In this document: positions 8,181-25,774 of the stretch, piece after piece
How the letters are laid out: each line of letters starts with the position of its first letter
Numbering within the stretch: position 1 is the first letter of the stretch
Source: Phycisphaerae bacterium
GTDB taxonomy: Bacteria; Planctomycetota; Phycisphaerae; UBA1845; Fen-1342
NCBI GenBank assembly: GCA_050115495.1
Contig: JASFQK010000019.1
Coordinates: forward strand, 32,001 to 96,000
Reading direction: 5' to 3'
Length of the DNA stretch: 64,000 nt
Made by a program: the position numbers and the translations under genes
The notes under the pieces: generated by a model
The model's database searches: none
The model's input: only the letters and a program-made list of their open reading frames with translations
What the model was told of the DNA's origin: nothing

Positions 8181-9722
8181 TCAGCGGTGGACGTCGATGG
8201 TCTTCTCCAGCTCGATTCGGCGGGACCAGGTGGCCGCTGAGGGGAGGGTGGCGGTTTCGTCGTCGTGCCACTCGCCTTTCCAGGCGGTGAGGTTGGGACC
8301 GACGGCGAAGTAGAGCACCGCGCGGACACGTAGCGGACCAGGCTGTGTGGGCGTGATGGAGGCCTGAATGCGCGATAGACCGCTGGCCACGAATTTGGCA
8401 TGCTCGCCGCGCTCCCGCTGCCCCAGCGGGGCAGGGTCGTCACCGAAGAAGAAGCCGCCGAAGTACACGGCCGGATCGAGGCCGAAGGGCGTGCGGCTGC
8501 GGCGGTAGGTTGAGCTAAGATGCACGTGCAGCGGCTCTCCCACCACGGCGGTCGCCGGAGCGTCGATCCGGACGTCGAGCATCTCGCCGTAGTAGCGCTC
8601 CGTAACGTCCGGAGGCAGCAGACTGGCGGACACCTGGCCCCACAACCAGCCGCCCTGGACCATATCGAGGTAGTCCTGTTCAAGTCGTTTGTCGAGCAGG
8701 CCGACCGCTAGCTGCCGTCGTTGCTCCGGCGACAGACGCCGGCCCAGCAGTTCGCTCCACTCTGCACGCGTGAAGCCGTCGTCGGCCACGGCGTCGTTGA
8801 TGAGCGCCCCGGTCGGAAGGGTGCGCAGCACCAAGCCGCGCACAGAAGCCGGTGACAGCATCATCAGGATCATCGGCAGCGCCGCCGCCGCCAGGAAGGC
8901 CACTGCCAACCACAGATGATGCGGCTGGCGGGATGGCTTCCCGATGATCATGCCGCCGGGGAGGCTCCAGTCCATGCCACACTCGGGGCAACGCCGGGGG
9001 TTCAGGCCGGAAGGCGCTTGCTGATAGCCGCAGGCCACGCAGTGCCGCGAGTTGCCGGTCCGGCGGCGATACCGGTTCAGGTAGATCAGCCCGGTGCACA
9101 GAAAGACCACCGCCAGCAACATCGGCCCATAGAGGAACAGCAGACCGGTGAGGCTGACACCGCCCAGCCAGTGCATCAGCAGAAACGCCACCGTGAAGAG
9201 GGCGACGCACAGGGCTACGGTGACCAGGATGTGCTCGCGGAGGATCGCCAGCAGACGCTGGAGACGCTGGTTCCATACCGGCGGCAACAGCGGCGGGGCC
9301 AGCCGCAACGGTGTGAACACGTAATTGAGCCAATAGGATGGTAGATCGGCCCGCACGTATGGGCGACGGCACTTGGGACACTTGCCCGCCGGCACGTCCT
9401 CCGGCACCGGTCGGCGGCAGCGGGGACAGATGTAGCCGTCGTGCTTCGGCACCTCACGCAACACGGTGCGCGCGATATGAAGGCGGCGTCCGAGCTGCGC
9501 GAAGATGATCGCCGGCACGACGACGCCCGTCGCGACTAACAGGAAAAGGAGTTCGTCTCTGCACGCGGCGGCCAGTGCCCCGCCCTTCCACGTGATGCCC
9601 CACACGAAGATGCCAACGGGTACGATGGCCCCCAACACGCGCCCGATGTAGCCCAACCACAGACGACGTATCCGCCGCTGTAAGCTCTGGGCCCAGATGT
9701 TGTCCGGATCGTGCCAGTTCAT
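8181..9722 (-). CDS. Membrane protein with two zinc ribbons
   Basis: CPRC..CPKC and CVACGY..CPECG motifs between about 5 TM helices; start MNWHDPDN at 9722. Confidence 0.8.
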   Translation of the reverse strand: MNWHDPDNIWAQSLQRRIRRLWLGYIGRVLGAIVPVGIFVWGITWKGGALAAACRDELLFLLVATGVVVPAIIFAQLGRRLHIARTVLREVPKHDGYICPRCRRPVPEDVPAGKCPKCRRPYVRADLPSYWLNYVFTPLRLAPPLLPPVWNQRLQRLLAILREHILVTVALCVALFTVAFLLMHWLGGVSLTGLLFLYGPMLLAVVFLCTGLIYLNRYRRRTGNSRHCVACGYQQAPSGLNPRRCPECGMDWSLPGGMIIGKPSRQPHHLWLAVAFLAAAALPMILMMLSPASVRGLVLRTLPTGALINDAVADDGFTRAEWSELLGRRLSPEQRRQLAVGLLDKRLEQDYLDMVQGGWLWGQVSASLLPPDVTERYYGEMLDVRIDAPATAVVGEPLHVHLSSTYRRSRTPFGLDPAVYFGGFFFGDDPAPLGQRERGEHAKFVASGLSRIQASITPTQPGPLRVRAVLYFAVGPNLTAWKGEWHDDETATLPSAATWSRRIELEKTIDVHR

Positions 9723-9956
9723 ACGTCTATCCCCCTGGAGACCCGGTGTACCCACGGGCCGCGGCACCGCCCCGCGTTCCCCAGAGGCCGTCATCCTACT
9801 CGTTTGCCGGCTGCCCCGCCGCCCCGCAAGTCGCCCCCGGCAGAAAGCGTGCCCGACCGCCGGCCCGCCGGTACAGCCCCCCCGGCCCGTCCCGGAGAAC
9901 TTCGTCGGGTTCGACGTTTCGCGGCTTGGTGTGGCCTGGGGCGGTCGGCTACGCGG

Positions 9957-12506: not shown

Positions 12507-14117
12507 ATGCCAGACGCAACGGAAGAGAAGAAACTGCTGACGGAGCCGATCGGGGTGGCCATGTCCGGTGGCGGATACCGGGCGGCCGCGTTTCACTTGG
12601 GCACGCTGTCGTACTTGCACGATCTGCGCGACGCCGACCTGCTGCCCCCCGTCGCCATGATCTCGACCGTCTCGGGCGGAACGTTCACCGGCGTGCGCTA
12701 CGCCCTGGCCCTGGCGAAAAGCGAGCCGTTCCCGGCGTTCTTCACCAGCTTCTACACGTACCTCCAGGGGTCGAACCTGTTCAGGAAAGCCATGGACCGG
12801 CTGAGTCGCGGAGACCTCGGCCCGGGCGAGAAGCGCCGCGACATCATCGTTGCCCTGGCCGAAGTCTATTCGACCGACTTCCTCGCCGACGAGCACGGAC
12901 AGCCGTACCAGTTCGAGAAGATCCAGACCGCCCAGACCGCGTTGCGGGCGGCGATCTTCAATGCGACCGAGTTCCGCCAGGGCGGCGCGTTCCGTTTCCA
13001 GAGCGCGCCCGGAACACAGGCCCGCATCGGCAACCGCTACGTCAACATTCCGAAGGATGAGGCGGGCCACATTCGCCTGGGCGACATCGTGGCCGCCTCA
13101 TCGTGCTTCCCCGGCGGGTTCGAGCCAATCGCCTTTCCGGATGACTTCGGCTGGCCCGAAGGGAAGATTCCGCCCGCCGTGCGCCAGCGTTTCCCGAAAC
13201 CCGTCGCGCTGATGGATGGCGGCATCTACGACAACCAGGGCATCGAGAGTCTCCTGTACGCCGACGACCGTGACCCCGCGGATCTCGGTCTGTTCATCAT
13301 CTCCGACGTGGATCGGCAACCGGAGGACATCTACCCGATGCCACCCGACGTGCAGCTCGGCAAGCTGGGGGACACGCCCCTCGGTAGGCTCCACCGGCTG
13401 GCGTGGGTCTGGATGCTCGCCTGCCTGATAACGGCGTGCGTCGTGGGCGTGCAGTTGGCAACAGCCGAGCACTTCACCGTCTGGAACTACTTCTCGCACG
13501 TGGTGCCGCTGATCCTCGCCCTCGCCACCGCGGGGCTGCTCATCGCCGGTCTGTGGGTCTCCCGCCGGATCGGCGAGCGGATGCGGACGAGCGTCAAGCT
13601 GGAGTGGCGTGATTTCCGAAAGATCACGCTGGGCCAGGCCGTCACGATGCTCTACCTCCGCGGCACGTCGCTCCTGGCCATGGCCCAGGCCGTGTTCATG
13701 CACCGCATCCGTCAACTCGTCTACGGGCTCGTGTACAAGGACGATCGCTACAAGGACAAGCGCGTGTCCTGCCTGGTGTACGGCTTGCAGAAGCCGGCGA
13801 AAGAGCTGGCGGGCCTGGTGCCGCCGCCGTCGGAGAAGCTCGGCCGGGTCGTCAAAGCGGCGGTTGAGATGCCGACGACGTTGTGGTTCTGCGATCCGCA
13901 TGAGCTGCCGTGCCTGGTCGCCTGCGGGCAAGCTACGTTGTGCTACAACCTGATGAAGTGGGTCGTGCGGCAATATGGCGGCGACCCGGCGGCGCTCGCC
14001 GATCCGCCGGTCGGACCGCTGTTGGAGCGACTGAAGACGGACTGGCAGGCGCTGAACGCCGACCCGTACGCCCTGCTCCGCCGGCAGATGCCCGACGCCA
14101 CGCTGGCGGAGCCTTAA
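12507..14117 (+). CDS. Patatin-like phospholipase with two internal TM helices
   Basis: SGGGYRAA oxyanion loop, STVSGG nucleophile motif, ASSCFPGGF, DGGIYDNQG; start MPDATEEK. Confidence 0.85.
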   Translation: MPDATEEKKLLTEPIGVAMSGGGYRAAAFHLGTLSYLHDLRDADLLPPVAMISTVSGGTFTGVRYALALAKSEPFPAFFTSFYTYLQGSNLFRKAMDRLSRGDLGPGEKRRDIIVALAEVYSTDFLADEHGQPYQFEKIQTAQTALRAAIFNATEFRQGGAFRFQSAPGTQARIGNRYVNIPKDEAGHIRLGDIVAASSCFPGGFEPIAFPDDFGWPEGKIPPAVRQRFPKPVALMDGGIYDNQGIESLLYADDRDPADLGLFIISDVDRQPEDIYPMPPDVQLGKLGDTPLGRLHRLAWVWMLACLITACVVGVQLATAEHFTVWNYFSHVVPLILALATAGLLIAGLWVSRRIGERMRTSVKLEWRDFRKITLGQAVTMLYLRGTSLLAMAQAVFMHRIRQLVYGLVYKDDRYKDKRVSCLVYGLQKPAKELAGLVPPPSEKLGRVVKAAVEMPTTLWFCDPHELPCLVACGQATLCYNLMKWVVRQYGGDPAALADPPVGPLLERLKTDWQALNADPYALLRRQMPDATLAEP

Positions 14118-14162
14118 GCCGCCCGTCCACTGGTAACCACACGCCGTGAAGGAGATATACGC

Positions 14163-14738
14163 ATGGCACTGGGGCTTTTCAGCGACATGATTGACGCTCT
14201 CGGCAACGTCGTGGGCAAGTTGAAGTCCATCGCCACGTTTCCGAAGGCACAGCGCGAGGCGATCCGCCAGCCGTTGGACGAGACCTGCCGTCTGATCGAT
14301 ACAACGCTCAACATGGTGATCATCCGGCTGGGCGACATCCTGCTGGAAAGCCAGGACGAAGTCCTGCTCAAGGAGGCCGCCCGGCTAGACAACTTCGAGG
14401 CGTGGATGAACGCCGAACGCGAGTTCCGGCTGTGCCGCAGCCTGCGTGTGGCGGAGCGTGAGATGACAACGCTGGCCGGCAAAGTCGGCGGCGCGATCAG
14501 CACGAAGGACTGGGAAGCGTTACTGGAGCACGTGCGGACCGTCCTCGCCGCCGAGGACCACGTCGCGGTGTTCATCTGCCGGCAGTTCGAGCGGTTGGCT
14601 GGTGACGCCGGTGACGCCAACCCGGGGACCCAGGCAGCGCGGGAGGTGCGCGACACGCTGACCGCGTTCCGCGCCGCCCTGGTCAGCGAGCGGCAAGCGC
14701 TCATCCAGCATGAACGGGCCCTCTACGACGTCATCTGA
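14163..14738 (+). CDS. Hypothetical, apparently all-helical protein
   Basis: 191 aa ORF with strong RBS (AAGGAG) and coding-like composition. Confidence 0.75.
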   Translation: MALGLFSDMIDALGNVVGKLKSIATFPKAQREAIRQPLDETCRLIDTTLNMVIIRLGDILLESQDEVLLKEAARLDNFEAWMNAEREFRLCRSLRVAEREMTTLAGKVGGAISTKDWEALLEHVRTVLAAEDHVAVFICRQFERLAGDAGDANPGTQAAREVRDTLTAFRAALVSERQALIQHERALYDVI

Positions 14739-14867
14739 CCGCCGGCTCGGCGGCCGATCATCCAGGGGGAGCGCGTGACCCGACCGGGCCCCCGCCCGCC
14801 AGCGGCCAGCCACGTCAGCAGTCCCCGAAAACCGCGCCGCCCCTGCACCGGCCGCCCGGGTCATCCG

Positions 14868-14873
14868 TATAAT
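14868..14873 (+). promoter_or_regulatory. Putative -10 box (TATAAT) upstream of the paralog/radical SAM operon
   Basis: Perfect TATAAT in GC-rich intergenic DNA 45 nt before the first paralog; no convincing -35. Confidence 0.4.
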
Positions 14874-14917
14874 GGGACATACCGGCTGAGGGGTCGTCGC
14901 TGCATACATACGGAGAC

Positions 14918-15841
14918 GTGCGGATGGCGAGCTTGGACTGCAAACGGTCGCTTAACGCCCGCCAGCCGGGGTACCCCACCAAACTCCAAGTGCTCGGCCG
15001 CCCCCAACTCCTGGCGAGGCACGTACCGCGGACATGGTTGTCTCGCCATGAGATCACGGCGGCGATGGGTCTGCTATTGGCCGGTAGCTCCGGCGGATGC
15101 CGGGATGGCGCGGGGCCGCCGACCGGAGATAATCCCGCCAAACAGCCGGCGGTCGCCTCGCCGATCTGGCCACACGGCGACGGCCTTGCGGAGCTGTACG
15201 CCGGCTGGCTCGGCGCTCCCCCCATCGCGGTGTACCTGACCGAGGATCAGAGCCTGGAGATCATCCGCGAGGAACTGGCCCGCGGCGGAGTACATCTGGC
15301 GCCGCCGGGAACCTCGCCGCCCACGATTCACGTTCCCTATGTTCGCTGGACGACCGAGCACGAGTGGGTGTCCGAGGACTTCAGATGCGTACCGGCCGAG
15401 GCGCGCTTGCCCTTTGCGCTGGATCTGGCCAGCGAGCAACCGGCGATCTACGTGGAATACATCTCCCAGGAGGACTACCTGCCACAAAACGAGAACGCGG
15501 CGTTAGGGTATGTTGGGCAGGATCTCCAAGGCTTCGCCGGGATCGTGGCTCGCGAGGTCGAACGCCAGTGTAGCGGCGCGTACTGCGGCGTCTTCTACGA
15601 CCCGGTGATCTATCGCGACGACCGCTTCTTCTCCGGTCGCGAGCCGCCGGAGGAGCTTCTCCAGGCGATGAAGGAAGCTCAGACGGAGGCGCAGCGCGAG
15701 GAAGTCTACGAGATGGCCTGCGAGTATACCGACCGTGCCAACAAAGCCGACGAAGAGCGTGCCCGTGGCGAGTCCGCGGAGCTCCTCCGTCAACAAGTCC
15801 GTGACTTCGTCGAGTGGCTCAAGGGGCAGGGGGTGATCTAG
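14918..15841 (+). CDS. Paralog 1 of tandem lipoprotein-like family (QVRDFxEWL-GQGVI C-terminus)
   Basis: PGYPTKLQV leader, LLAGSSGGC, HGDG..YLTED, GVFYDP, LLRQQVRDFVEWLKGQGVI*. Confidence 0.85.
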   Translation: MRMASLDCKRSLNARQPGYPTKLQVLGRPQLLARHVPRTWLSRHEITAAMGLLLAGSSGGCRDGAGPPTGDNPAKQPAVASPIWPHGDGLAELYAGWLGAPPIAVYLTEDQSLEIIREELARGGVHLAPPGTSPPTIHVPYVRWTTEHEWVSEDFRCVPAEARLPFALDLASEQPAIYVEYISQEDYLPQNENAALGYVGQDLQGFAGIVAREVERQCSGAYCGVFYDPVIYRDDRFFSGREPPEELLQAMKEAQTEAQREEVYEMACEYTDRANKADEERARGESAELLRQQVRDFVEWLKGQGVI

Positions 15842-16617
15842 TGGCGTGCACGCTTCCATGTCGGCCACAACAGCGTGCGGCGCCGTGGGCGCGGAAGGTG
15901 ATCGGTGCGCTCCTGGCGGCGGCGAGCGTCGCTCTGGTCGCCGGTTGCGGGGATTCGGACTCGGCGACGCACAAGGCAGCAGTGGTGGCCCCGGTTTTCA
16001 AGCATGGGGAGGGCTTGGACGTTTGCCGCTGCTCACCTTTCACTGCGTCCATCGTCCTCTCCGAGGACGATGCCCTTCTCATCATCGCCGAAGAACTGCG
16101 GCTGCACGGCGTCGCGCTGTCCAAGCGCAGCGTCGAGATGCCGTCCGTCATTGTGTCGCGGCGCGAGCGTCGACCAGGATACGAGTGGACGTCCGGCCGT
16201 GCAAGCGGCCACTTCGTCCGCTTCGACGCACCCCTGGAATTCGATGGCGTAGACGCTGAGCGGCGTGTGGCAGTTGAGTTCGTCTCCTGTGGCGACTACG
16301 ACGGTCTAGCCGGCCCCTGGTTCAACGAAGACCCCTATGTCTGGACCGGGCCGGGCGAACTGCAGCGGGCCGCCGGCTACGTCGCGGACTGCGTGCGCGG
16401 GCAACCGGAGACCGTCTACTTCGGCGTGTTCTACGACCCGCTGGAGTGCCCGCTGGACTATGACGAGTTCTCGCGCCGCCACGGTACCGCCGGCCCCGGC
16501 CGCCCCGAGCCGTCGTGGGACGAGGTCGAACAGGAAGCCAGGGAACGGTCTGTGGAGCTCCTGCGCCAGCAGGTACGCGACTTCGTCGAGTGGCTCCAGG
16601 GTCAGGGGGTGATCTAG
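15841..16617 (+). CDS. Paralog 2 of tandem lipoprotein-like family
   Basis: GTG start overlaps previous TAG; LVAGC lipobox; HGEG..LSED; YFGVFYDP; LLRQQVRDFVEWLQGQGVI*. Confidence 0.85.
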   Translation: MACTLPCRPQQRAAPWARKVIGALLAAASVALVAGCGDSDSATHKAAVVAPVFKHGEGLDVCRCSPFTASIVLSEDDALLIIAEELRLHGVALSKRSVEMPSVIVSRRERRPGYEWTSGRASGHFVRFDAPLEFDGVDAERRVAVEFVSCGDYDGLAGPWFNEDPYVWTGPGELQRAAGYVADCVRGQPETVYFGVFYDPLECPLDYDEFSRRHGTAGPGRPEPSWDEVEQEARERSVELLRQQVRDFVEWLQGQGVI

Positions 16618-17411
16618 TGGCTTATGCCCTTTCATGCCGGCCGCAACGATACGCGGCGCCGTGGGTGCGGAAGATGATCGGTGCGCTCCTGGCGGCGGCG
16701 AGCGCCGCTCTGGTCGCCGGTTGCGGCGATTCGGGCTCGGCGACGCGTGCCGCGACGCAGCCGGCGACGAACCACGCGGCGGTGGTGGCTCCGCTGTTCG
16801 AGCATGGCGAAGGTCGCACCATCGACCTATCGGCCCCCCTATCAGAAGATGAGGCCTTCCAAATCATCAGCGAGGAGTTGCGGCAGCACGGTGTCTTCCT
16901 CACTGCGCGTAACATCGAGTTGCCGTCGATCCTCGTGGAGCGGCGTGAGTACCAGGAGAAGTATGACTGGATCTCCGGGCTGTCCTCGACCGGGTACGTG
17001 TATTTCAACACGCCTTTGAGCGCCGATGGAATGGACCCGAATCGACGGGTGGCGGTCGAGTTCGCATCGGCCGACGATGTCTATGGACTTGCCGGTCCCT
17101 GGCGGCAGCAGATGGCGCGGTCCTCGGTGATCAGGTACGAACTGAAGCCAGTCGCCCGCTACGTGGCAGATCACGCCCGCGGGCGGCCGGCGGGGGTCTA
17201 CTTCGGCGTGTTCTACGACCCGTTGGAGGGCCACTTCGACTACGACGAGTTCGATCGACGCTGCAAGGCAATCGGCGCCCTGCCCTCCAGCATGCAGGCG
17301 ATGCAGATCCAGATGATGTTGGAGCGCGAAGTCAAGAACCGATCTGTGCCTTTCCTCCGTCAGCAGGTTCGCGATTTCGTTGAATGGCTCAAGGGCCAGG
17401 GGGTGATCTGA
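16617..17411 (+). CDS. Paralog 3 of tandem lipoprotein-like family
   Basis: GTG start overlaps previous TAG; LVAGC lipobox; HGEG..LSED; FLRQQVRDFVEWLKGQGVI*. Confidence 0.85.
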   Translation: MAYALSCRPQRYAAPWVRKMIGALLAAASAALVAGCGDSGSATRAATQPATNHAAVVAPLFEHGEGRTIDLSAPLSEDEAFQIISEELRQHGVFLTARNIELPSILVERREYQEKYDWISGLSSTGYVYFNTPLSADGMDPNRRVAVEFASADDVYGLAGPWRQQMARSSVIRYELKPVARYVADHARGRPAGVYFGVFYDPLEGHFDYDEFDRRCKAIGALPSSMQAMQIQMMLEREVKNRSVPFLRQQVRDFVEWLKGQGVI

Positions 17412-18289
17412 TGACCGACCGCGCCCGGTGCCGGCTGCGGCGATGTGCCAGGCCGCCGGCGTATCCCACGAAGCTCGAAGTTCTGGCATTGCCGAGGCTG
17501 CTCAAAGCGCACCAGCCGCCGGCGTGGATGGCGAATGGTACGATTCTGGCGGCCACGAGCGCCTTTCTGGCGGCCAATGTCGCCGGCTGTCACAGTCCGG
17601 CGCCGACATCCGGAACGCAACCACCGCCACCGAGCAAGGCCCCCGCTATCGTCGCTCCGCTCTTCGAGCACGGCGACGGCCGCGGCTCCGCCGGCTGCGT
17701 CGCGGTCAGCCCGCCGGTGTTCCTTTCCGAGGAAGAGGCGCTCCAAATCATCGTCGAGGAGCTTCAGCCGCACGGGATTGAGCTGTCGGGCCACGACGTC
17801 GAGTTGCCGTCCGTCATCGTGAAGCACAAGGAGTTTCGGCAGGAACAGGATGGCCGGCGCCAGGGTGGCCGATGGGTGCAGTTCGAGGCTCCCTTGCATG
17901 CCGACGGCGTGGATTCCGAGCACCACATCGCCGTCGAGTTCGCCTCCCGGGACGACTTCGACGACCTAGCGGGCCCGTGGTACGCGGAGGGCGTGTACTG
18001 CACGGCGACGTTCTTCGACATGAGGGAGGTCGCCGGCTATGTAGCAGATCAGGCGCGCGGGCGGCCGGAGGGCGTGTACTTCGGCGTGTTCTACGACCCG
18101 CTGGAGGGACGACTGGACTTCGCCGAGTTCCGCCGGCGTTCGCTCGCTGCTAACGGCACGTTGGACCGGCAGCGACATCGGCAGGTCCATGAAGAACTGA
18201 GCGAACAAGGCAAGAACAAGTCCGCGGAACTCCTTCGCCAGCAGGTTCGGGACTTCGTCGAATGGCTCAAGGGACAGGGGGTGATCTGA
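17411..18289 (+). CDS. Paralog 4 of tandem lipoprotein-like family
   Basis: ATG overlaps previous TGA; PAYPTKLEV leader; NVAGC lipobox; HGDGRGSAGCVAVSPPVFLSEE; same C-terminus. Confidence 0.9.
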   Translation: MTDRARCRLRRCARPPAYPTKLEVLALPRLLKAHQPPAWMANGTILAATSAFLAANVAGCHSPAPTSGTQPPPPSKAPAIVAPLFEHGDGRGSAGCVAVSPPVFLSEEEALQIIVEELQPHGIELSGHDVELPSVIVKHKEFRQEQDGRRQGGRWVQFEAPLHADGVDSEHHIAVEFASRDDFDDLAGPWYAEGVYCTATFFDMREVAGYVADQARGRPEGVYFGVFYDPLEGRLDFAEFRRRSLAANGTLDRQRHRQVHEELSEQGKNKSAELLRQQVRDFVEWLKGQGVI

Positions 18290-18291
18290 TT

Positions 18292-19170
18292 GTGGCGAGG
18301 CTGGGGGTGAGACCGATTCGACGTTCGTCGTGGCCGGCGTATCCGACGGCGCTGCAGGTCAGGGCCCGGCCCGGCCTGCGGCGGCGGCACCAGCCGGCGG
18401 CGGGGCGGGCGAATCGCGAACTGGCCGTGGCCGCCGGCCTGCTCGCTTCGGCCCAACTCGCCGGCTGCGACCGGTCGGCGGCGACCCCACGCTCCGCCAC
18501 GCTCGGTCCCGAAGCGCCCGCCGTGGTCGCTCCGCTCTTCCTCCATGGCAAGGGCCGCGGGGCGGAGGGCTGCGTCGTCATGACGCCGCCGACCTTCCTG
18601 TCCGAAGAAGAGGCGCGACAGATCATTAGTGAAGAGCTGGCCCGTAGCGGCATAGAAGCCACGCAAGAGGATGTCGAATTCGCGGAGGTTCGCGTGCCGC
18701 GGCGGTACATCCGGTACTCGTGTGATGAGGACCGGAGCAACCTGCAGAGAAACATCGTTGAGAGCGTCGAGGAAGCTCAAGTCCTCTCCGTGGACTTCGT
18801 GGACGTAGAGCATCAAGTCGCAGTTGAGTTCGTTTCCTTCGACGATTTCCACGGCGTCGGCGGTCCCATCGACGGCTCGACGCTCGTTGTATACGACTTG
18901 AGAGAAACGGCGTCCTACCTGCGCTCGCAGGTGGAGAGTACCACCACCGGTACCTACATCGGCATCTTCTACGATCCGGCGACAGACCCGAGCCAGTTTA
19001 CCAGGTGGGCCGAACTCGACGGTCCACCCAGCGTAACCACTGCCCTCAAACGGACCTTCCAGAGACACGACGACGAGCGCGAGCAACTGGCGGCAGAAGA
19101 GGCCGAGCGGCTTCTCCGCCAGCAGGTTCGGGATTTCATCGAATGGCTCAAGGGCCAGGGGGTGATTTGA
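18292..19170 (+). CDS. Paralog 5 of tandem lipoprotein-like family
   Basis: GTG 2 nt after previous TGA; PAYPTALQV leader; QLAGC lipobox; HGKGRGAEGCVVMTPPTFLSEE; LLRQQVRDFIEWLKGQGVI*. Confidence 0.9.
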   Translation: MARLGVRPIRRSSWPAYPTALQVRARPGLRRRHQPAAGRANRELAVAAGLLASAQLAGCDRSAATPRSATLGPEAPAVVAPLFLHGKGRGAEGCVVMTPPTFLSEEEARQIISEELARSGIEATQEDVEFAEVRVPRRYIRYSCDEDRSNLQRNIVESVEEAQVLSVDFVDVEHQVAVEFVSFDDFHGVGGPIDGSTLVVYDLRETASYLRSQVESTTTGTYIGIFYDPATDPSQFTRWAELDGPPSVTTALKRTFQRHDDEREQLAAEEAERLLRQQVRDFIEWLKGQGVI

Positions 19171-19172
19171 AT

Positions 19173-20306
19173 ATGCACCTGACGCTGCACCTGACGACGG
19201 CCTGCAACATGCGGTGCTCGTACTGCTATGCGCCGCCCAGGGACGGGGCGCCCATGAGCGAGGACGTCGCCCGCGCCGCCGTCGATCTCGGGGCCCGCCT
19301 GTCCACCGGCTCGTGCGGCATCGTCTTCTTCGGCGGCGAGCCGCTGCTGTGCAAGGAGCGCATCGCCGACACCGTCGCCTACGCCCGCCGGCGGGAACGC
19401 GACGGTGACCAGCGCTACCACTTCAAGATCACGACGAACGGCCTGGCCCTTGACGATGACTGGCTGGATTACGCCATCCGCAACGACATCCTCGTCGCCA
19501 TGAGCTTCGACGGCGTGCGGGCGGCACACGACGCGCACCGGCGATTGCCGAACGGCCGCAGCTCGTACGATGTGCTGCTCGCCCGGCTCAAGGCTCTGCT
19601 GGCCGTTCGCCCGTACGCCAGCGTGCTGACCACGGTGAACCCGGACACGGCCCAGTACCTGGCCGAGTCGATCGAGCTGCTCATCGACCTCGACGTGCGC
19701 TACCCCATCGTCTCGCCGAACTACGCCGGCGACTGGACCGAAGCCGACTTCCGCGTGCTCCAGAAGCAGTACCAGCGGCTCGGCCGGCGTTACATCGAGT
19801 GGACGCGGGCTGGGCGCAAGTTCTACCTCAGCCCGTTCGAGGTGAAGCTGTCGTCGCACATCAACCGGCACTGCTGGCAGAAGGAGCGCTGCGAACTGGC
19901 CCAGCGGCAGATCTCCGTCGACCCGCAGGGCTACCTGTTCCCGTGCGTGCAATTCCCGCGGGCCGGGAAGGACAGCCGCTGGTGCATCGGCCACGTCTCG
20001 ACCGGGATCGACGAAACGGCGCGCCAGGCGCTGCACGATGAATCGGAGGCGGAGAAGGAAACCTGTCGCGGCTGCGCTCTAGCCGACCGTTGCCACAACA
20101 CCTGCGGCTGCCTGAACTGGCAGACGACCGGCACGGTCAACGGCATCTCGCCGGTGCTCTGCCGCCACGAGCAGATGCTGATCCCCATCGCCGACCGCGT
20201 GGGCGAGAAGCTGTACAAGAAGCGGGACCCGCTGTTCCTGCACAAGCACTACAACTCGGCGTACCCGGTACTGTCGCTGCTGGAAGATGTGCTGGTGAAG
20301 AAATGA
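19173..20306 (+). CDS. Radical SAM/SPASM domain protein (anSME/peptide-maturase-like)
   Basis: CNMRCSYC, FFGGEPLL, ITTNG, MSFDG..HD..R; SPASM cysteines in CELAQRQISVDPQGYLFPC and CRGCALADRCHNTCGC...LC. Confidence 0.95.
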   Translation: MHLTLHLTTACNMRCSYCYAPPRDGAPMSEDVARAAVDLGARLSTGSCGIVFFGGEPLLCKERIADTVAYARRRERDGDQRYHFKITTNGLALDDDWLDYAIRNDILVAMSFDGVRAAHDAHRRLPNGRSSYDVLLARLKALLAVRPYASVLTTVNPDTAQYLAESIELLIDLDVRYPIVSPNYAGDWTEADFRVLQKQYQRLGRRYIEWTRAGRKFYLSPFEVKLSSHINRHCWQKERCELAQRQISVDPQGYLFPCVQFPRAGKDSRWCIGHVSTGIDETARQALHDESEAEKETCRGCALADRCHNTCGCLNWQTTGTVNGISPVLCRHEQMLIPIADRVGEKLYKKRDPLFLHKHYNSAYPVLSLLEDVLVKK

Positions 20307-20821
20307 GCGTGCACACGGTGGTGGGGACGGCGCTGCGGCTGACCCGCCGGACGGTCATCGTGCTGCTGTTCCTGGCTGCGCTGGCGACGCTGGGGACGGG
20401 CATCGTCAGCTACTGGCAGGGCATTCCCGGCGACACGTTGTGGATCAACACCGAGGATGAACAGCCCCGCGTATACGTGGCGATGATCCGCGGCGACCTG
20501 CACGCCGTGTACTCCCGGCCGAGCAACGCCGGGGCGTCGCGGTACCGGCAGGATCTCGGGCCGTTCATGTACAAGCACGTGGGCATCGGCAGCATCGACG
20601 CGGTCGGCGTGAGTCTGCCGTTCTGGTCGCTGTTCGCCGTGCTGCTCTTCATCCCCCTGCTGGCCTTTGTCAGCGGCCCGGTCCGCCGGTGGCGATGGCG
20701 CCGGCAGGGCCGCTGCCTCCACTGCGGCTACAACCTGACCGGCCTGGCGGAGCTGCGCTGCCCGGAGTGCGGGCAGCCGTTCAAGCCGCGGTCGGCTTCC
20801 GCAACAGCCGATAAGCAGTAG
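20303..20821 (+). CDS. Membrane protein with C-terminal zinc ribbon
   Basis: ATGA overlap with rSAM stop; two hydrophobic segments; RRWRWRRQGRCLHCGYNLTGLAELRCPECG. Confidence 0.8.
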   Translation: MSVHTVVGTALRLTRRTVIVLLFLAALATLGTGIVSYWQGIPGDTLWINTEDEQPRVYVAMIRGDLHAVYSRPSNAGASRYRQDLGPFMYKHVGIGSIDAVGVSLPFWSLFAVLLFIPLLAFVSGPVRRWRWRRQGRCLHCGYNLTGLAELRCPECGQPFKPRSASATADKQ

Positions 20822-21042
20822 ATCCGCCGGCCGGGGCATCGTCCGCGGCACTCCGGGCGCGAGCGACTTCGGACCCGGCGTGCTTGTCGGCGGCGGGGGG
20901 CGGTAGAATAGTGCGGCTCGTCCGAGCCTCTCGACGCCGAGGGGGCGGCGGCGGCTGAAGAGTCGATGACGCCGGGAGTCGGCGTCCGGACGATGAACCT
21001 GCCTGAGTACAGCTACATCCTGAACGAGAAAGGGAAGTCGTA

Positions 21043-21591
21043 GTGACCCTGCAACTGCTCGCCATATGCGTGCTCATTGTCATCGCGCGCATCGCCGACG
21101 TTTCGCTCGGCACCATTCGCACCATCTGCGTCGTCCAGGGACGGGCGGCGCTCGCCTGGGTGCTGGCTTTCATGGAGATCCTCATCTGGATCTTCGTCGT
21201 GTCGAGAGTGATCACGAACCTGGATACGCCGGCCTACGCCATCGCCTATGCGCTCGGCTACGCCACGGGCAACTTCGTCGGCATCACGCTGGAGAAACGC
21301 CTCGCCTTCGGCCGGCAGGTGGTACGCATCTTCACGCGGGCGGCCGGGACCGTGCCCCGGCTGCGCGAGCTGGGCTATCGCGTCACCGAATTCACGGGCC
21401 GCGGCCGCGACGGCGCGGTCGAACTGCTGTTCATCGAGACCACCCGGCGGGAGGCACCGCGCCTGCTGGAATGCGCCGCCGAAGCTGACCCGCAGTGCTA
21501 CTACCTGGTGGACGACATCCGCCTGGCGGCCAACCCGGCGGCCCTGCGCCAGCGCTCCACCGGCTGGTGGGGCGTGTTCAAGAAGAAGTAG
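21043..21591 (+). CDS. UPF0316 (DUF5698/DUF2179) membrane protein
   Basis: IARIADVSLGTIRTI, FMEILIW, AYALGYATGNFVG, GYRVTEFTGRGRDG. Confidence 0.85.
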   Translation: MTLQLLAICVLIVIARIADVSLGTIRTICVVQGRAALAWVLAFMEILIWIFVVSRVITNLDTPAYAIAYALGYATGNFVGITLEKRLAFGRQVVRIFTRAAGTVPRLRELGYRVTEFTGRGRDGAVELLFIETTRREAPRLLECAAEADPQCYYLVDDIRLAANPAALRQRSTGWWGVFKKK

Positions 21592-21672
21592 ACATAACGT
21601 GTGGCGAACGATGGCGGCGTCCCCCCGGAGGCAAACCGGCTCCGGGGGACCGGGTGCGCGCGGGCAACGGTC

Positions 21673-22575
21673 TCACCGCCACCGACAATGCACGATGGTC
21701 ATGACCCGTAGCAGACGGTTCGCCCAGATCATGAGCCGCGTCGACGTGGGGATCTTTCCCAAACGCAGGCCGCGGAAGTACTCGAACTGCTCAACCAACG
21801 TGAGGTTCGCCCCCCACTGATCGAGAGCGCGTGCATCCTTCAACGCCCACTGAATGACCGCGGCTTCCATGCCCGCCTGGCGGAGCATCGCGTTGGCCTT
21901 TTCGGCACCGCGCGGCGATATCGCATCGAAGACGATCTCCGCGCCCGGGAAAGCCGTCCCCATCCGGCGTAGCAGCGACATTGCCTCGTCCTGCCGGAAG
22001 TAGCACAGCACGCCCCCCGCCACGAACAACAGCGCCGTGCGATCGCCCAGGTCCTGCCCCATCCACGCATCGTCCAGCAGGGAAGCCGCCAGGCAACGGG
22101 ACCGCTCCGTCTCCGGAATCACGTGTCGCCGAAGCGCGATAACTTCCGGCAGGTCCAGATCGATCCACCGTACGCGGCCGTTGTCGACCCTGGCGAACGT
22201 CGTGTCCAGGCCCGCTCCGAGATTCACCACGGTGCCCGCCGGGTGGCGAGCCAGAAACGCCCGGATCTTCTCGTCGAACTGCCGCGCCCGCGCCGCCCAA
22301 CTGATGTTCTTCGAGTAGTCCAGTGTGGCCTGGAGCCGCGAGAAGTCGTACTTGAGCCGGCGAATGATCTCGACGGCCTGCTGGTCCGACAGGACGGGGC
22401 TGCCGGCCAGACACAACTGCGCCCGCCCCCACAGAGGAAGCAGCAGCGTCTCCGGAACGTCGCAGAGCGCGATCTCGACCCCGTCCACAGCCGTCTCCGT
22501 TGTCTTGTTACCGCCGAGTGTATTCACCGCGCTCTCGGCGGATTGTGCCTCGCCGAACGGGCGCAGGCGCCTCAC
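21673..22575 (-). CDS. Class I SAM-dependent methyltransferase (leucine carboxyl methyltransferase-like)
   Basis: VPETLLLPLWGRA, VVNLGAGLDT, WIDLDLPEVI, GVLCYF; true start may be downstream of 22575. Confidence 0.9.
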   Translation of the reverse strand: MRRLRPFGEAQSAESAVNTLGGNKTTETAVDGVEIALCDVPETLLLPLWGRAQLCLAGSPVLSDQQAVEIIRRLKYDFSRLQATLDYSKNISWAARARQFDEKIRAFLARHPAGTVVNLGAGLDTTFARVDNGRVRWIDLDLPEVIALRRHVIPETERSRCLAASLLDDAWMGQDLGDRTALLFVAGGVLCYFRQDEAMSLLRRMGTAFPGAEIVFDAISPRGAEKANAMLRQAGMEAAVIQWALKDARALDQWGANLTLVEQFEYFRGLRLGKIPTSTRLMIWANRLLRVMTIVHCRWR

Positions 22576-24758
22576 TCTCCGTGGTACTTCAACACCGTGT
22601 CCAGCACCCGGTAACGACTGTGCACGTCCGAGCGTAACGACTGTGGCGACACGTTCGAGCCCTGGCCGACGCGCCGGAGATTCTCCGCCGCCAGGTCGGC
22701 GGCCGCATGATAGAGCTCGAGCGCCCGCGCCTCGCAGTTCGTCGCTCCGAGCACGAGCAGTCGCTCCGCCAATTGCAGATGCACGTGGGCCGCGGCGCCC
22801 AGCGCGTACTTGGAGACCCAGGTGCCGTCCGACTGCTTGCGCTCGGCGTCGAGACGATGGCAGTCGATCAGCGCTCGCGCCGGTGCGTCCAGTGCCGCCG
22901 CGTCGGCCACGCCGTAGCAGGCGTTGAACAGCGCCTCGTACGCGCCGGTCCAGTACGGATGACCGGCCTCCAGCGACGAAGCACGCAGATACTCGATCGC
23001 CCGCTCGGCCGCGCGACGGGCGTCCTCATGGTGCTGGCAATGGCGAGAGAGCTTCTTCGCCAGCGAAGCGTGGTGGTCGCCAAGATTGCTCTGGTGTCTC
23101 CGTTGGGTGGCCGCGTCCGCCCGGTCCGACGAGTCGCCGAAGTAGCCGCCCGAGGCGCCCGTGCGCAGCGCGTTCTCAGTATTGCTGATAGCCTGCCGGT
23201 TCTTGTCGATCGCCTCGGTGTCCCGCTCGGTCACCGTGAACGTGCAGGTGACCTGCTGCGGGGCGACGCGCGGGATATCGACCGGCGTGAAGGTGATCGT
23301 GAACGTGCCCTGCTTCACCGGGATGGACGCCCGGAACTCCGCGGAGGTCGTGTCCGGCCGCACGTCGCCCCACAGGTAGAACGTCCGGCCGGCGGCCACT
23401 TCGGCCTTGATGTGATACAGCCCGGGCGGCAGATTCGACGGCAGCACCGGGATCTTCACGACACAAGCCAACCCTTCCCCATCCAGGTTGCGTTCGGTCA
23501 GCGCGCCCGCCTCGGGACGGTCCACCACAAGCTGGCAGACGGGTTCCTCGCGTCGCGCCGACGCACCGGCGGGGCTGAACGTTACGGCGGATGAGGTGAC
23601 CCGCTCGCCCCCCGGCAGCAACACGTCGTACGCGATCTCATACGTGCCGGCGAACCCCGCGTCCTCGCTGACCGTCAGATAGAACGGTCCTTCACGCTGC
23701 ACCGGCGGCGCTTCCTGCGCACCTTCCGGCTCCATCGCCGCGGCCATCCCGGGGTGCATCTCGAGCGTGACGTCGGGCCGGCGCAGGGCGATGTCGTATC
23801 CGGGCTCGATGTACGCCACCTGTCGCGGGCCCGGGAACCGGTCCCATGGCGAGCGCATCTGCTCGCTCGGGCCGACCGTGACGCGCGTCACGCGAACCGT
23901 TGCCGCCGCTCCGGCGGTCTCCTCGAACTCAACGTAGAACCGCCAGACGATACGGCGCGACGGCGCCAGGCCACTCGGCTCTGACGATTCCACGCCGACG
24001 ATCCGCGTAATCACTTCCGGCCGCGCATCGGTCGCTGGCGGCGTCGCCGGCGGCTGCGGGTCGGGCGGCTGGGCAGCTTCCGGCGATTGTGCCGCTTCCG
24101 CCGCGTCTTCCTGTCGACCGCGAGCCACGGCAATCCGCTCGACCAGCCGCGCTTTTTCGTCTGCCAGCCGCGCCGCGTACTCGGTCAACTGCGTCTGGTG
24201 CAGGGTCATCAGCCGGATCCCCGGGCGCAGGACGTTCTGCACGTGCATCCCCCACTGGTGCACGTTTCGCTGGACCGATTCCACGTCCTGGTAGTACCGG
24301 GGCGAGTCCTCGCCCTCGACCGGCAGTCCGTCCCGCAGCAACCGATCGTTCAACTCGTCGATGATGCGCTGACGCCGCCGCGGGTAGTTGTTCTGGAAAT
24401 CGAAGTAGTCATCAATGTTGGCCAACGCTCGGTCCAGCGGGTGCCACCCGCTCGGCTGGTTCTCGTAGTACCGCCGCCGCGCTTCTTCCAATTCCGTCAG
24501 CGGTTGCAGGAACCTGTTGCCGGCGGCGATAAGCGACTCGTCCGTCCTGGCCTCGTTCTTCGCGTTCTCCAGATTGGTGGCCAGATCGCGAAGAGACTGC
24601 TGAACCCGCTCCCGCTCCTTCTTCAGCAAGGCGAGCTCTTTCTGCAAAGCGTCGATCTGCTCCGGCGGCTGGCGGTCGTCCGCTGTGACGGCCATCGGCA
24701 TCGCCGCCGCCAGAACGGCCAGCGTGATCCAGGTGCGTGAACGTGCAAGGAACATCAT
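22572..24758 (-). CDS. Large secreted hypothetical protein (coiled-coil N-part, beta-rich middle, TPR-like helical C-part)
   Basis: Signal peptide MMFLARSRTWITLAVLAAAMPMAVTA at 24758, ATGA-coupled to the ankyrin gene stop. Confidence 0.75.
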   Translation of the reverse strand: MMFLARSRTWITLAVLAAAMPMAVTADDRQPPEQIDALQKELALLKKERERVQQSLRDLATNLENAKNEARTDESLIAAGNRFLQPLTELEEARRRYYENQPSGWHPLDRALANIDDYFDFQNNYPRRRQRIIDELNDRLLRDGLPVEGEDSPRYYQDVESVQRNVHQWGMHVQNVLRPGIRLMTLHQTQLTEYAARLADEKARLVERIAVARGRQEDAAEAAQSPEAAQPPDPQPPATPPATDARPEVITRIVGVESSEPSGLAPSRRIVWRFYVEFEETAGAAATVRVTRVTVGPSEQMRSPWDRFPGPRQVAYIEPGYDIALRRPDVTLEMHPGMAAAMEPEGAQEAPPVQREGPFYLTVSEDAGFAGTYEIAYDVLLPGGERVTSSAVTFSPAGASARREEPVCQLVVDRPEAGALTERNLDGEGLACVVKIPVLPSNLPPGLYHIKAEVAAGRTFYLWGDVRPDTTSAEFRASIPVKQGTFTITFTPVDIPRVAPQQVTCTFTVTERDTEAIDKNRQAISNTENALRTGASGGYFGDSSDRADAATQRRHQSNLGDHHASLAKKLSRHCQHHEDARRAAERAIEYLRASSLEAGHPYWTGAYEALFNACYGVADAAALDAPARALIDCHRLDAERKQSDGTWVSKYALGAAAHVHLQLAERLLVLGATNCEARALELYHAAADLAAENLRRVGQGSNVSPQSLRSDVHSRYRVLDTVLKYHGE

Positions 24759-25774
24759 GGCGTACCTCCCGTCGGCGCAGCGCCGCCGCGGATCGTCGTA
24801 ACGTCGGGCACGCGACGCACATCGTCGATCGCCCACGCCGTATCCGTGCGTTTGAACCGCCCTTCCAGAATGAACGTCACGTCGCCGACCAGCGAATCCG
24901 CGCCGTACCGGACCGCGGCGGTGGCCGTGGCGGTCAGGCCGCTGACGCTGATCTCTTTGACGGTGAATTCCACCCAGCGCGGAAAGCTCTCCGGCAACTG
25001 CTTGCACCGTTCGGGCGTCAACGTGGCCTTCATGGCCTCGTCCTGGCCGTCGCGGACCGCAGTCAGAAACTCGTTCCAACACTTCTGCACGGCGAGCGTG
25101 TCGCGCGGCGGCTTCGCCTTCTTCGCGGCGGCCTGGAGAATCGGCTGCAGCGGGCTGCCCTCGCTGAGATCGATGGGCGTGACGCCCTGCCGATCCCGTA
25201 GCGACGGATCCGCCCCGGCCCGCAACAGGGCCTGGATAGCGAAGTCCTCCTGGGCGAGCACGGTGAGGTGCAGCGGAGTCACCCCGTCGTTGCAGGTCGC
25301 GTTGACGTCGGCGCCGCACTCCACCAGCGCGTTCAGCGCCGCGACGCGCTGAACGGCCGCCAGATGGAGCGCCGTGCGTCCCTCGTGATCCCGCGCTTCC
25401 AGCAACCGCACATGCAGCGGCGTGGAAGGCGCGTCGAAGATCGACCCGCCCTGCATGACCCCCTTCTTCTCTGTCGTCTTGACCAGCAGGCGAATTACGT
25501 CCGCCTGATTGGCACCGGCGGCATGATGCAGCGCCGTCCACCCATCGCCGTCCCGGGCGAGCACATCGACGCTGCTCTCCAGCGGCATGTCGCCGCCAAG
25601 CAGCGTCCGAAGGGTCGCCATATCGCCGACGGCGGCCGCGGCGTGCAGCGGCGGAAGTTGAGCACTGGCCGGGTCACTCGCCGGCGTGGCGGCCGGCGGC
25701 TCGGCCAGGCTCACCGCTACGAGCCATGCCAGAGCGGCTGCGGCCGCGGTCCGGCACACATTCCGTTTACTCAT
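24755..25774 (-). CDS. Secreted ankyrin repeat protein
   Basis: Signal peptide; PPLHAAA, GWTALHHAA, GRTALHLAA, GADVNA..DGVTPLH, GADP..GVTP. Confidence 0.9.
   Translation of the reverse strand: MSKRNVCRTAAAAALAWLVAVSLAEPPAATPASDPASAQLPPLHAAAAVGDMATLRTLLGGDMPLESSVDVLARDGDGWTALHHAAGANQADVIRLLVKTTEKKGVMQGGSIFDAPSTPLHVRLLEARDHEGRTALHLAAVQRVAALNALVECGADVNATCNDGVTPLHLTVLAQEDFAIQALLRAGADPSLRDRQGVTPIDLSEGSPLQPILQAAAKKAKPPRDTLAVQKCWNEFLTAVRDGQDEAMKATLTPERCKQLPESFPRWVEFTVKEISVSGLTATATAAVRYGADSLVGDVTFILEGRFKRTDTAWAIDDVRRVPDVTTIRGGAAPTGGTP

Follow-up and report, generated by a model that had tools for sequence, protein, structure and literature searches.

Few radical SAM enzymes are, to our knowledge, known to modify full-size proteins. 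anSME acts on its protein before export, the sulfatase substrate motif being CxPxR/CxAxR; PapB-type substrates carry a CX3D/E motif; and TIGR04133/TIGR04134 represent an rSAM-lipoprotein system. Closest by profile and fold to the enzyme described here are the PapB/CteB maturases, QhpD and CrpC, with which it would share leader-guided modification of a gene-encoded neighbor; the ranthisynthase substrates QhpC and CrpA are themselves proteins (PMC13692751). The present system differs from these in a PapB-family score below 340 bits, the lack of an RRE, an extra CxC, the lack of CX3D/E, at most one core Cys, and a leader followed by an export signal. The DAG-RiPPs, or RiPP-lipoprotein hybrids (DybA/DybH, MelA1), range from peptides to proteins of >30 kDa and are modified in the cytoplasm before lipidation or secretion (PMC13056109). 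Our family shares with them a signal-peptide-bearing precursor and, by pattern, a lipobox Cys, its modification being proposed here; they rely on MNIO enzymes together with a motif at the C terminus, whereas this locus combines a radical SAM enzyme with a conserved leader before the signal, and lipidated RiPPs are expected to be leader-independent or follower-guided (PMC13056109). Finally, spliceases (XYG; PMC11414181) and the cyclopropyl synthases TvgB/TigE (PMC10878394) are radical SAM enzymes that read short, sometimes repeated Gly motifs, and binary spliceases have been modelled to bind a leader helix even though no separate RRE is present (PMC11414181).

Here, we analyzed a 64,000-nucleotide stretch of a Phycisphaerae genome (the window), in which tandem genes for exported proteins precede a radical SAM gene. 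This pairing, found in numerous bacteria, points to a putative, undescribed route of chemical modification for surface proteins, in which a tag N-terminal to the signal peptide would serve as the guide.

Gene organization and the exported-protein family

Six ORFs on the plus strand make up the locus, five paralogs and, directly downstream, the radical SAM gene (19173-20306). As the initial annotation had described, the genes are tightly packed, with overlaps of TAGTG, TAGTG and TGATG followed by two 2-nt gaps, and the paralogs share one scaffold: they are 29-55% identical in pairwise comparisons (E 1e-22 to 1e-84), and their alignment holds 44 invariant columns, including those of LRQQVRDFxEWLxGQGVI. 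A scan of 14000-21700 found neither a sigma-70 promoter nor a terminator, and the 5.97-Mb, 92%-complete genome contains no sixth paralog or second clade enzyme.

The five copies are unequal: a leader precedes the signal in paralogs 1, 4, and 5 only, a GC core is present in 4 and 5 only, and paralogs 2 and 3 have neither. Paralog 1 (14918..15841; 307 aa from GTG) has a likelier start at the ATG at 14924, 8 nt downstream of GGAG; its leader (14939..15037; PGYPT...PQLL...P..W; leader HMM 48 bits) stands ahead of a hydrophobic segment with a weak signal/lipobox (SSGGC), a degenerate core (YAGWLGAPP) without GC, and a nuclease-like domain. Paralog 2 (15841..16617; 258 aa; lipoprotein signal LVAGC) has lost about 24 leader residues and the core GC while keeping the nuclease-like domain, and its sister, paralog 3 (16617..17411; 264 aa; 55% identical to it), has the same leader deletion and lacks the core motif altogether. 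Paralog 4 (17411..18289; 292 aa) is canonical, with a leader at residues 5-41 (17423..17533; leader HMM 46 bits), the signal NVAGC, a HGDGRGSAGCVAVSPP core (17669..17716) and a nuclease-like domain (E107, D165, E176); its Gly95-Cys96 (17693-17698) is the proposed modification site. Paralog 5 (18292..19170; 292 aa) combines a leader without the conserved Trp, the signal QLAGC, a HGKGRGAEGCVVMTPP core with its Gly-Cys at 18568-18573, and a nuclease-like domain. Both the pre-signal leader and this inequality had gone unnoticed in the initial annotation.

The term lipoprotein, applied earlier to all five paralogs, is a judgment by eye and pattern. It holds insofar as each has a hydrophobic segment followed by GC, weakest in paralog 1 (SSGGC, hydropathy 1.29), and does not extend to the family, in which 193 of 312 members have a lipobox-like Cys and the remainder look like signal peptidase I substrates. 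A Tat export route was considered and rejected, since many leaders carry KK or another residue pair where RR would be required. The paralogs have no Pfam match, 88 family members gave zero NCBIfam matches at E≤0.01, and a search of mostly open-access literature found no publication on this pairing of leader, export, and radical SAM enzyme. Neither the exported protein nor the enzyme is covered by a curated family or reaches a specific family cut-off, in line with the earlier view of an uncharacterized family; the system itself occurs widely, forming 1,885 clusters at 50% identity.

Model-based comparisons show a weak resemblance between the mature domain and PD-(D/E)xK nucleases. I-Bth0305I (3R3P) and NGO0050 (3HRL) lead the structural matches to paralog 4 residues 102-292 (Z 6.6, rmsd 3.3, 95 aligned), and nucleases fill 8 of the top 10 rows, with the best Z remaining below 8; the paralog model gave zero Foldseek matches at E≤0.001, and all Atlas matches of the domain were below threshold. 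The PD-(D/E)xK catalytic motif is E...D...(D/E)xK, and besides the top matches the family shares with the PD-(D/E)xK/Vsr/DUF559 fold a conserved acidic triad (E107 in 311/315, D165 in 279/315, and E176 in 269/315, with V/I/L at E+2); it differs in being exported and, in paralog 4, in having no Lys after E176.

The radical SAM/SPASM enzyme and its coupling to the family

The enzyme (19173..20306, plus strand; 377 aa) matches PF04055 with 63 bits (cut-off 29.5) and, in agreement with the initial reading of its motifs, carries CxxxCxxC at C11/15/18 and seven SPASM cysteines (C240, 258, 298, 301, 307, 311, 330), all of which align with those of CteB. It lacks an N-terminal RRE: CxxxCxxC begins at residue 11, and the model opens with the first barrel strand. 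Its best curated match is the PapB family (NF047865), at 219.4 bits against a cut-off of 340, and TIGR04133 is not among the best 25 of its 73 family matches. Structurally, it is closest to CteB (PDB 5WGG) and anSME (PDB 4K37), each with TM 0.80, whereas EpeE is distant (TM 0.46). With anSME it shares an RRE-less SPASM architecture, the clusters of anSME being fully ligated (PMC6231123), but it scores only 95.7 bits on TIGR03942 (cut-off 349.45), its partners lack CxPxR, and its proposed substrate is no sulfatase.

Beyond the SPASM set, an invariant C313 completes a PqqE-like CxC (C311-x-C313; 20103..20111) that marks the whole clade in alignment; in PqqE the CxC is used in AuxI ligation, and the sactisynthase SkfB likewise carries one (PMC6231123). 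Because C313 is missing along with C240, C258, and C311 in one enzyme (L111), we read it as probably the fourth AuxI ligand. An anSME-like upstream C234 was rejected for this role, being not fixed and missing from many enzymes.

Coupling to the family is tight in both directions, bearing out the expectation that homologs would neighbor this enzyme clade. Starting from the family, an enzyme (≥385 bits) is present at 51 of the 53 informative loci, those whose downstream sequence extends for 1 kb or more (33 distinct at 90% identity). Starting from the enzyme (≥520 bits) in 15 genomes, a set that excludes the search centres and the genome of this locus, a family member lies within 1.5 kb in 14 and a leader-bearing short protein in the 15th. 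Weaker enzymes (270-450 bits) adjoin a leader-bearing exported protein at 34 of 36 loci retrieved, and in one Clostridial family 77 out of 121 genomes encode a related enzyme. At one locus (L005/G305), the domain lacks both leader and motif and is fused to a beta-galactosidase, in a genome without an enzyme-profile match; at another (L023), the family gene is split and the enzyme missing.

Leader, core motif, and proposed maturation route

The conserved leader, KPVxxYxxPxYP...PxLL...PxxW, precedes the signal peptide, and in paralog 4 its P16, Y18, P19, L31, P36, and W39 are 93-96% conserved (315 sequences). All 74 scorable members retrieved through core and tail DNA patterns alone carry it (three others were unscorable). 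Unrelated passengers also begin with this leader start, namely copper amine oxidase N-terminal-like domains, short acidic lipoproteins, and tiny lipopeptides; no larger protein bearing the leader emerged among 31 candidates, though this is weak evidence. The last helix of the enzyme (YNxxYPxxS..ED; 20253..20297) tends to be present when the leader on the partner has its second half: the state of the helix matches that of the long leader in 59/60 enzymes, five leader calls having been set by hand, although this reflects only 3-4 independent tree changes and three independent pairs (sign test p 0.5). In quick trees of the enzymes, a joint loss of both falls within an Armatimonadota branch that has 100% support.

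The core consensus HGxGRGxxGCxxxxPP is kept in paralogs 4 and 5, and G95 and C96 of paralog 4 are each 92% conserved in the family alignment. Partners of related clade enzymes lack such a Cys and bear repeated hydrophobic-x-Gly motifs. Among 34 non-redundant non-nuclease partners, L/I/Y/T/M/V (a set picked by eye on the same data) occupies position -2 of a mature Gly in 139/241 cases, against 0.35 ± 0.03 in 2000 shuffles, with about four motifs per protein. Some Cys-less nuclease-type partners place hydrophobic-x-Gly exactly at the GC position (LAGDVAVP, LMGDVAMP, LAGDAYV). Held-out motif tests back a Gly-centred site only in part. The first, with Cys heavily penalised, ranked G95 top in 0/283 proteins; with a Clostridial-repeat matrix and neutral Cys scoring chosen after that test, G95 ranked top in 65/283 (chance 18), a match owed entirely to the downstream half, as the upstream half gave 0/283. 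Among 27 Cys-less nuclease-type proteins, the best-scoring Gly fell inside the core in 6 (4.8 expected). Paralog 1, with a score of 0.3 and rank 5, fits the matrix poorly, as do the two partners in G233, the genome with the closest enzyme (77% identical).

The reading we favor, at a probability of about 0.48, is a two-component, RiPP-like maturation of exported proteins by a leader-reading radical SAM enzyme, acting on a Gly-centred site through C-alpha chemistry. That the enzyme acts on these exported proteins is likely, substrate status being the simplest reading of the family; the Gly-centred core is the modification site with slightly better than even odds; and oxidation at the Gly C-alpha is a tentative assignment. 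Counting against this reading are the 92% conservation of Cys96 in the main family, the CxC of SkfB, the enzyme-less locus L023, and one tiny lipopeptide partner (L177) whose mature part is free of Gly. A substrate would consist of a leader, a Sec signal of lipoprotein or signal peptidase I type, a short linker, the core motif, and a passenger domain. The RRE-less enzyme would bind the leader in the cytoplasm, its C-terminal helices perhaps holding the second half, as co-occurrence suggests, and would abstract hydrogen at the Gly-centred site of the unfolded core, presumably Gly95 of G-C-hydrophobic-x-hydrophobic in paralog 4. The likeliest chemistry would be Gly C-alpha abstraction and one-electron oxidation via auxiliary clusters ligated entirely by Cys, yielding an N-acyl iminium. 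Where the substrate has Gly-Cys, the adjacent thiol could then close a six-membered thiomorpholinone (-2 Da), in a manner recalling enteropeptins with their thiomorpholine rings between adjacent residues (PMC12973295); for Cys-free substrates, addition of water or another side chain is a guess. On export, the leader would come off along with the signal, and a modified protein would remain at the surface or in the periplasm. At this locus, we expect paralogs 4 and 5 to be substrates and regard paralog 1 as a doubtful one; paralogs 2 and 3, lacking leader core and motif, are probably unmodified derivatives. The earlier proposal that all five are substrates is not supported in that form.

By a bolder extension, which we advance only tentatively, a large CxC-type, RRE-less radical SAM clade would read a portable pre-signal leader and install an undescribed Gly backbone modification on lipoproteins and secreted proteins across many phyla, with one site in each nuclease-fold protein and about four in each short acidic surface lipoprotein. 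The position of the leader ahead of the signal peptide appears to solve the conflict with the leaderless expectation for RiPP-lipoprotein hybrids; if so, signal peptidase would remove the leader for free, making it a natural tag for modifying exported proteins. With its interchangeable passengers, it would offer a ready tool for secreted-protein modification in a system of merely two genes without a curated name, and a new reaction at Gly, if real, would widen known radical SAM chemistry.

Competing readings of the modification

An improbable alternative is a Cys-directed thioether, as in PapB, QhpD, and CrpC, in which a bond from Cys96 to a more distant position, for example an upstream Gly of the HGxGRG loop or an acidic side chain, would staple the domain ahead of export. 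The PapB and CteB matches are to thioether-forming enzymes, C96 is strongly conserved with GC in 71/74 metagenome members, and protein ranthionines have precedent (PMC13692751). Against it, Cys+4 is Asp in 8/267 and Glu in none, a mature Cys is missing from 14 of the 34 short partners, and five genomes (G233, G957, G898, G822, G838) encode a nested clade enzyme without a GC-type partner genome-wide; moreover, C313 probably fills the AuxI site that binds substrate sulfur in PapB and Tte1186 (PMC10177961). A search of the domain found no second conserved Cys or disulfide partner, 169/315 members having no Cys after residue 100. Since the clade has the extra CxC and related enzymes have Cys-free hydrophobic-x-Gly partners, both PapB-type thioether and formylglycine are unlikely, and the chemistries suggested initially find little footing, CxPxR/CxAxR occurring in 1/315 members.

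Equally improbable is a target in the leader or lipobox region, whereby YxxPxY(P) would be cross-linked or oxidised, licensing export or releasing a modified peptide once the signal is cleaved, with the mature motifs conserved for other reasons. YxxPxY is the sole element common to all partner types, both G233 partners retain the leader without a core, and two Armatimonadota partners (L177, L178) consist of leader, signal, Cys, and merely 4-6 further residues. Such tiny partners belong, however, to a distant enzyme branch (273-288 bits), and a leader target leaves unexplained both the hydrophobic-x-Gly repeats of otherwise featureless partners and hydrophobic-x-Gly at the GC position of Cys-less domain proteins.

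Mass-silent or aliphatic chemistry on the Gly-flanking hydrophobics, either C-alpha epimerisation of the PoyD/EpeE kind, in which C313 would donate H, or a C-C bond, is slightly less probable still. Hydrophobic residues do alternate at -4, -2, +2, and +4 of the repeat, and TVGG and TIGSVS are precedents for repeated Gly cores in which Val/Ile is modified (PMC10878394), but the cyclopropyl-synthase GYW motif is found in 0/82 enzymes, C313 is co-lost with AuxI ligands in L111, and EpeE is structurally remote. Splicease-type recognition departs similarly, with YG in the core of only 25/315 members and an XYG site in none of the five paralog cores.

Least probable of all, the exported proteins would not be substrates and the enzyme would make a small molecule or cofactor that they use or bind, the pre-signal segment serving, for example, export timing: gene coupling by itself is compatible with other relations and the retained acidic triad could bind metal or ligand, but the loci have no other biosynthetic gene in common, the radical SAM enzyme being the only conserved partner, the leader is kept across partners from folded domains to 5-residue lipopeptides, and every close structural match acts on peptides or proteins.

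Among the flanking genes, the patatin-like gene, a 191-aa ORF, and the DUF5698 gene have no counterparts at other loci. A small membrane protein ending in a zinc ribbon (20303..20821, plus strand), whose start overlaps the enzyme stop, has homologs only at L001 and G233 among all loci compared and is a local passenger outside the system core.

The tandem array and its exported-protein family

Five exported-protein genes (paralogs 1–5) lie at 14918/14924-15841 (two candidate starts), 15841-16617, 16617-17411, 17411-18289 and 18292-19170, and are followed directly by the radical SAM/SPASM enzyme gene at 19173-20306, with neighbouring genes overlapping by 1 nt at three junctions and standing 2 nt apart at the other two; these ORF coordinates bear out the positions that the initial annotation had assigned to all six genes. 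Pairwise identity among the paralogs is 29–55%, and the GC content of the array is similar to that of its flanks. A genome-wide search for a sixth copy found none, the paralogs returned zero matches against Pfam and NCBIfam, and none of 88 family members matched NCBIfam at E<=0.01.

Paralog 4 recovered 672 homologs at E<=0.001, and a profile search with the family reached 1,885 clusters at 50% identity. An alignment of 315 sequences, a set biased to full-length matches, displays three conserved blocks: (i) a leader, KPVxxYxxPxYPT...PxLL...PxxW, N-terminal of the hydrophobic signal, with P16, Y18, P19, L31, P36 and W39 conserved at 93–96%; (ii) a core, APxFxHGxGRGxxGCxxxxPPxFLSEEEA, containing Gly95-Cys96 in paralog 4 numbering (the GC core); and (iii) a tail, LRxQVxDFxxWLKxQG. 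As a cross-check, members found only by core and tail DNA patterns carried the leader in 74/74 scorable cases and GC in 71 (3 more were not scorable). By pattern and eye only, 193 of 312 members have a lipobox-like Cys and the remainder resemble signal peptidase I substrates. At one locus (L042, 1533-3029 (+)), right behind a family gene, the start of the leader adjoins a PD40 beta-propeller protein in one ORF, which may be a genuine fusion or an assembly artefact.

Within the array, the leader model scores paralogs 1, 4 and 5 at 44–48 bits, and only paralogs 4 and 5 retain the GC core. Paralogs 2 and 3 share a ~24-residue internal deletion and do not score with the leader model; since the two are sisters, leader and core were lost together in a single event. 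The QGVI tail is encoded by CAGGGGGTGAT(C/T) in all five genes (15826-15841, 16602-16617, 17396-17411, 18274-18289 and 19155-19170), itself a near-complete Shine-Dalgarno sequence shortly ahead of the next start. The tail Gly codon is GGG/GGA in 51/82 tails versus 418/1066 elsewhere in the same ORFs. Tail conservation may in part reflect a ribosome-binding site.

Foldseek found no match for paralog 4 as modelled by AlphaFold2 (pLDDT 87). Of the ten highest-ranking rows in a wide structural search, 8 were nucleases of the PD-(D/E)xK type, with Z reaching 6.6, and an Atlas search returned the same clan below its bar. E107, D165 and E176 are conserved and the catalytic Lys is missing; the modelled mature domain suggests a nuclease-like fold with possible metal binding, and nuclease activity is doubtful.

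Elsewhere in the window, three membrane-type ORFs (7380-8159 (+), 8181-9794 (-) and 20303-20821 (+)) carry zinc ribbons (CxxC...CPECG) with only weak Pfam zinc-ribbon matches, and a 989-aa ORF without a Pfam match (22572-25541 (-)) contains a signal-like segment, its true start probably lying later.

Association with a CxC-type radical SAM enzyme

The initial annotation had proposed checking if homologs regularly neighbour this radical SAM clade, and they do so at 51 of 53 informative loci (enzyme at >=385 bits; 33 distinct at 90% identity), informative meaning at least 1 kb beyond the last family gene in a family-first sample of 85 loci (5 from genomes and 80 from metagenomes, the best 80 of 214 confirmed). 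The exceptions are a split family gene (L023) and a bare domain without leader or GC at the end of a beta-galactosidase (L005), whose genome gave no match to the enzyme profile. A survey of the host's class (301 genomes) placed both the family and the tight enzyme clade in the same two genomes only, and the enzyme was found in 0/6 same-genus genomes searched (84–93% complete). An enzyme-first sample covered the host's class, Clostridia, Armatimonadota and Acidobacteriota. Here, with the host's own genome and the search centres excluded, 15 enzymes reached >=520 bits; a family member lay no more than 1.5 kb from 14 of them, and the remaining one had a short protein with the leader. At 270–450 bits, with only the best 30 of one set included, all but two (L117 and L144) of 36 fetched loci held an exported protein bearing the leader. 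Related genomes in these coupling counts cannot be taken as independent.

In Pfam, the enzyme clears no more than the general cut-offs for Radical_SAM and Fer4_12, its best specific match being the PapB family at 219 bits versus a cut-off of 340. The enzymes closest to it come from G233, a genome of the same family, and from L001, a Phycisphaeraceae record, which suggests a host in Planctomycetota. Among solved structures, CteB and anSME lie nearest (TM 0.80). Only 10 residues precede CxxxCxxC, and the enzyme is therefore without an RRE. C313, two residues past C311, is additional to the seven SPASM cysteines, clade-wide and missing in SCIFF-type outgroups; PMC6231123 describes a CxC of this sort as ligating the auxiliary Fe-S cluster AuxI in PqqE and SkfB. 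One clade enzyme (L111, 1492-2607 (+)) has lost C240, C258, C311 and C313, the four putative AuxI cysteines, and kept the other four and AuxII; HHGG replaces the GC core in its partners.

A last helix, YNxxYPxxS..ED, is present in 29/30 enzymes with a long-leader partner and 0/30 with a first-half-only partner, counts in which five leader calls were assigned by hand from sequences and 19 rows without a call were omitted. On a tail-free tree these amount to 3–4 changes and three independent pairs (p 0.5), and the co-occurrence hints at direct leader binding, short of proof.

Partner range and the candidate site

Across the partner sequences, the Cys is not universal. The G233 enzyme is 77% identical to that of the window and has two partners only, neither with the GC core; another genome (G957) encodes a single, Cys-less partner. 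Three enzymes nested inside the main clade with 100% support (G822, G838 and G898) adjoin proteins in which the leader precedes either a copper amine oxidase N-terminal-like domain or a low-complexity tail, and genome-wide searches there found no family member. The Clostridial sister branch pairs with short acidic lipoproteins.

Among 34 non-redundant partners without the nuclease-type domain (drawn from 41), mature Cys is missing in 14. In the same set, L/I/Y/T/M/V, picked by eye, occupies -2 at 139/241 mature glycines (~4 per protein; shuffled control 0.35 +/- 0.03), and the repeat-motif Gly is flanked by V/P at -4 and I/V at +4. Several Cys-less domain proteins place a hydrophobic-x-Gly motif at the GC position. 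Held-out testing gave mixed results. A matrix trained on Clostridial repeats and applied to 283 proteins ranked G95 top in 0/283 with Cys penalised and in 65/283 (chance 18) with Cys neutral, the signal coming from the downstream half only. When 27 domain proteins lacking Cys were scored, the top-ranked Gly lay inside the core in 6, against an expected 4.8; scores were poor for paralog 1 and for the partners in G233. The partners of two distant Armatimonadota enzymes stop 4–6 residues past the lipobox Cys, one without Gly. Given the Cys-free partners, mixed held-out tests and tiny partners, no other single candidate for modification is as good as a Gly-centred site, which is not established, and the leader or the lipobox itself is a possible target.

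Proposed maturation and related systems

We regard the exported proteins as likely substrates of the enzyme (probability about 0.8). Most likely, the enzyme would grip the leader in the cytoplasm and modify the core while unfolded, export then removing leader and signal. The chemistry is a guess with the odds against it: Gly C-alpha abstraction would be followed by oxidation to an iminium, captured in Gly-Cys substrates by the adjacent Cys. In enteropeptins, a six-membered thiomorpholine joins neighbouring residues (PMC12973295).

Alternatively, the core Cys could be thioether-linked to a distant residue. SkfB shows that CxC is compatible with thioether formation; however, substrate sulfur is bound by an auxiliary cluster in both PapB and Tte1186 (PMC10177961), so a filled AuxI would speak against their mechanism here. 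Epimerisation or C-C chemistry is a further rival to the Gly-centred iminium route. That enzyme and exported proteins have no substrate relation is the less probable reading of their pairing.

Leader-guided maturation of exported proteins would resemble DAG-RiPPs (PMC13056109) and QhpD, CrpC and anSME (PMC13692751), yet array and enzyme lack the defining features of anSME, as well as those of ranthipeptide, splicease (PMC11414181) and cyclopropyl synthase (PMC10878394) systems. A literature search covering few subscription journals and no supplements found no description of the protein/enzyme pair, which we consider real and, within that coverage, undescribed: a variant of leader-guided protein maturation, new as far as searched. 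The present analysis adds that the range of partners does not depend on Cys, that the enzymes share a CxC signature, that leader and last helix co-occur, that the exported domain has a nuclease-like predicted fold, and that the five copies differ in state.

Several related loci were also observed. In one Clostridial family (L113-L151), 77/121 genomes carry a related enzyme, with one to three short acidic lipoproteins per system, each with ~4 hydrophobic-x-Gly repeats (NCBIfam match in 0 of three tested); certain genomes hold both this and the nuclease-fold system. Tiny, unannotated-size lipoprotein ORFs of 53–55 aa (L177, 2503-2697 (-); L178, 5480-5752 (+)), comprising a short leader, lipoprotein signal, Cys and 4–6 residues, each lie directly upstream of a CxC-type radical SAM enzyme and are candidate modified lipopeptides. 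In the host's class, judged by eye, more distant CxC-type enzymes (L097, L099 and L100) are followed by a small exported Gly-motif protein and a signal peptidase I-like gene. At two further loci (L101, 149-1426 (-); L102, 2615-3805 (+)), a very Cys-rich ~400-aa repeat protein with a twin-Arg signal adjoins paired radical SAM-like genes and looks like a CrpA-style protein substrate.
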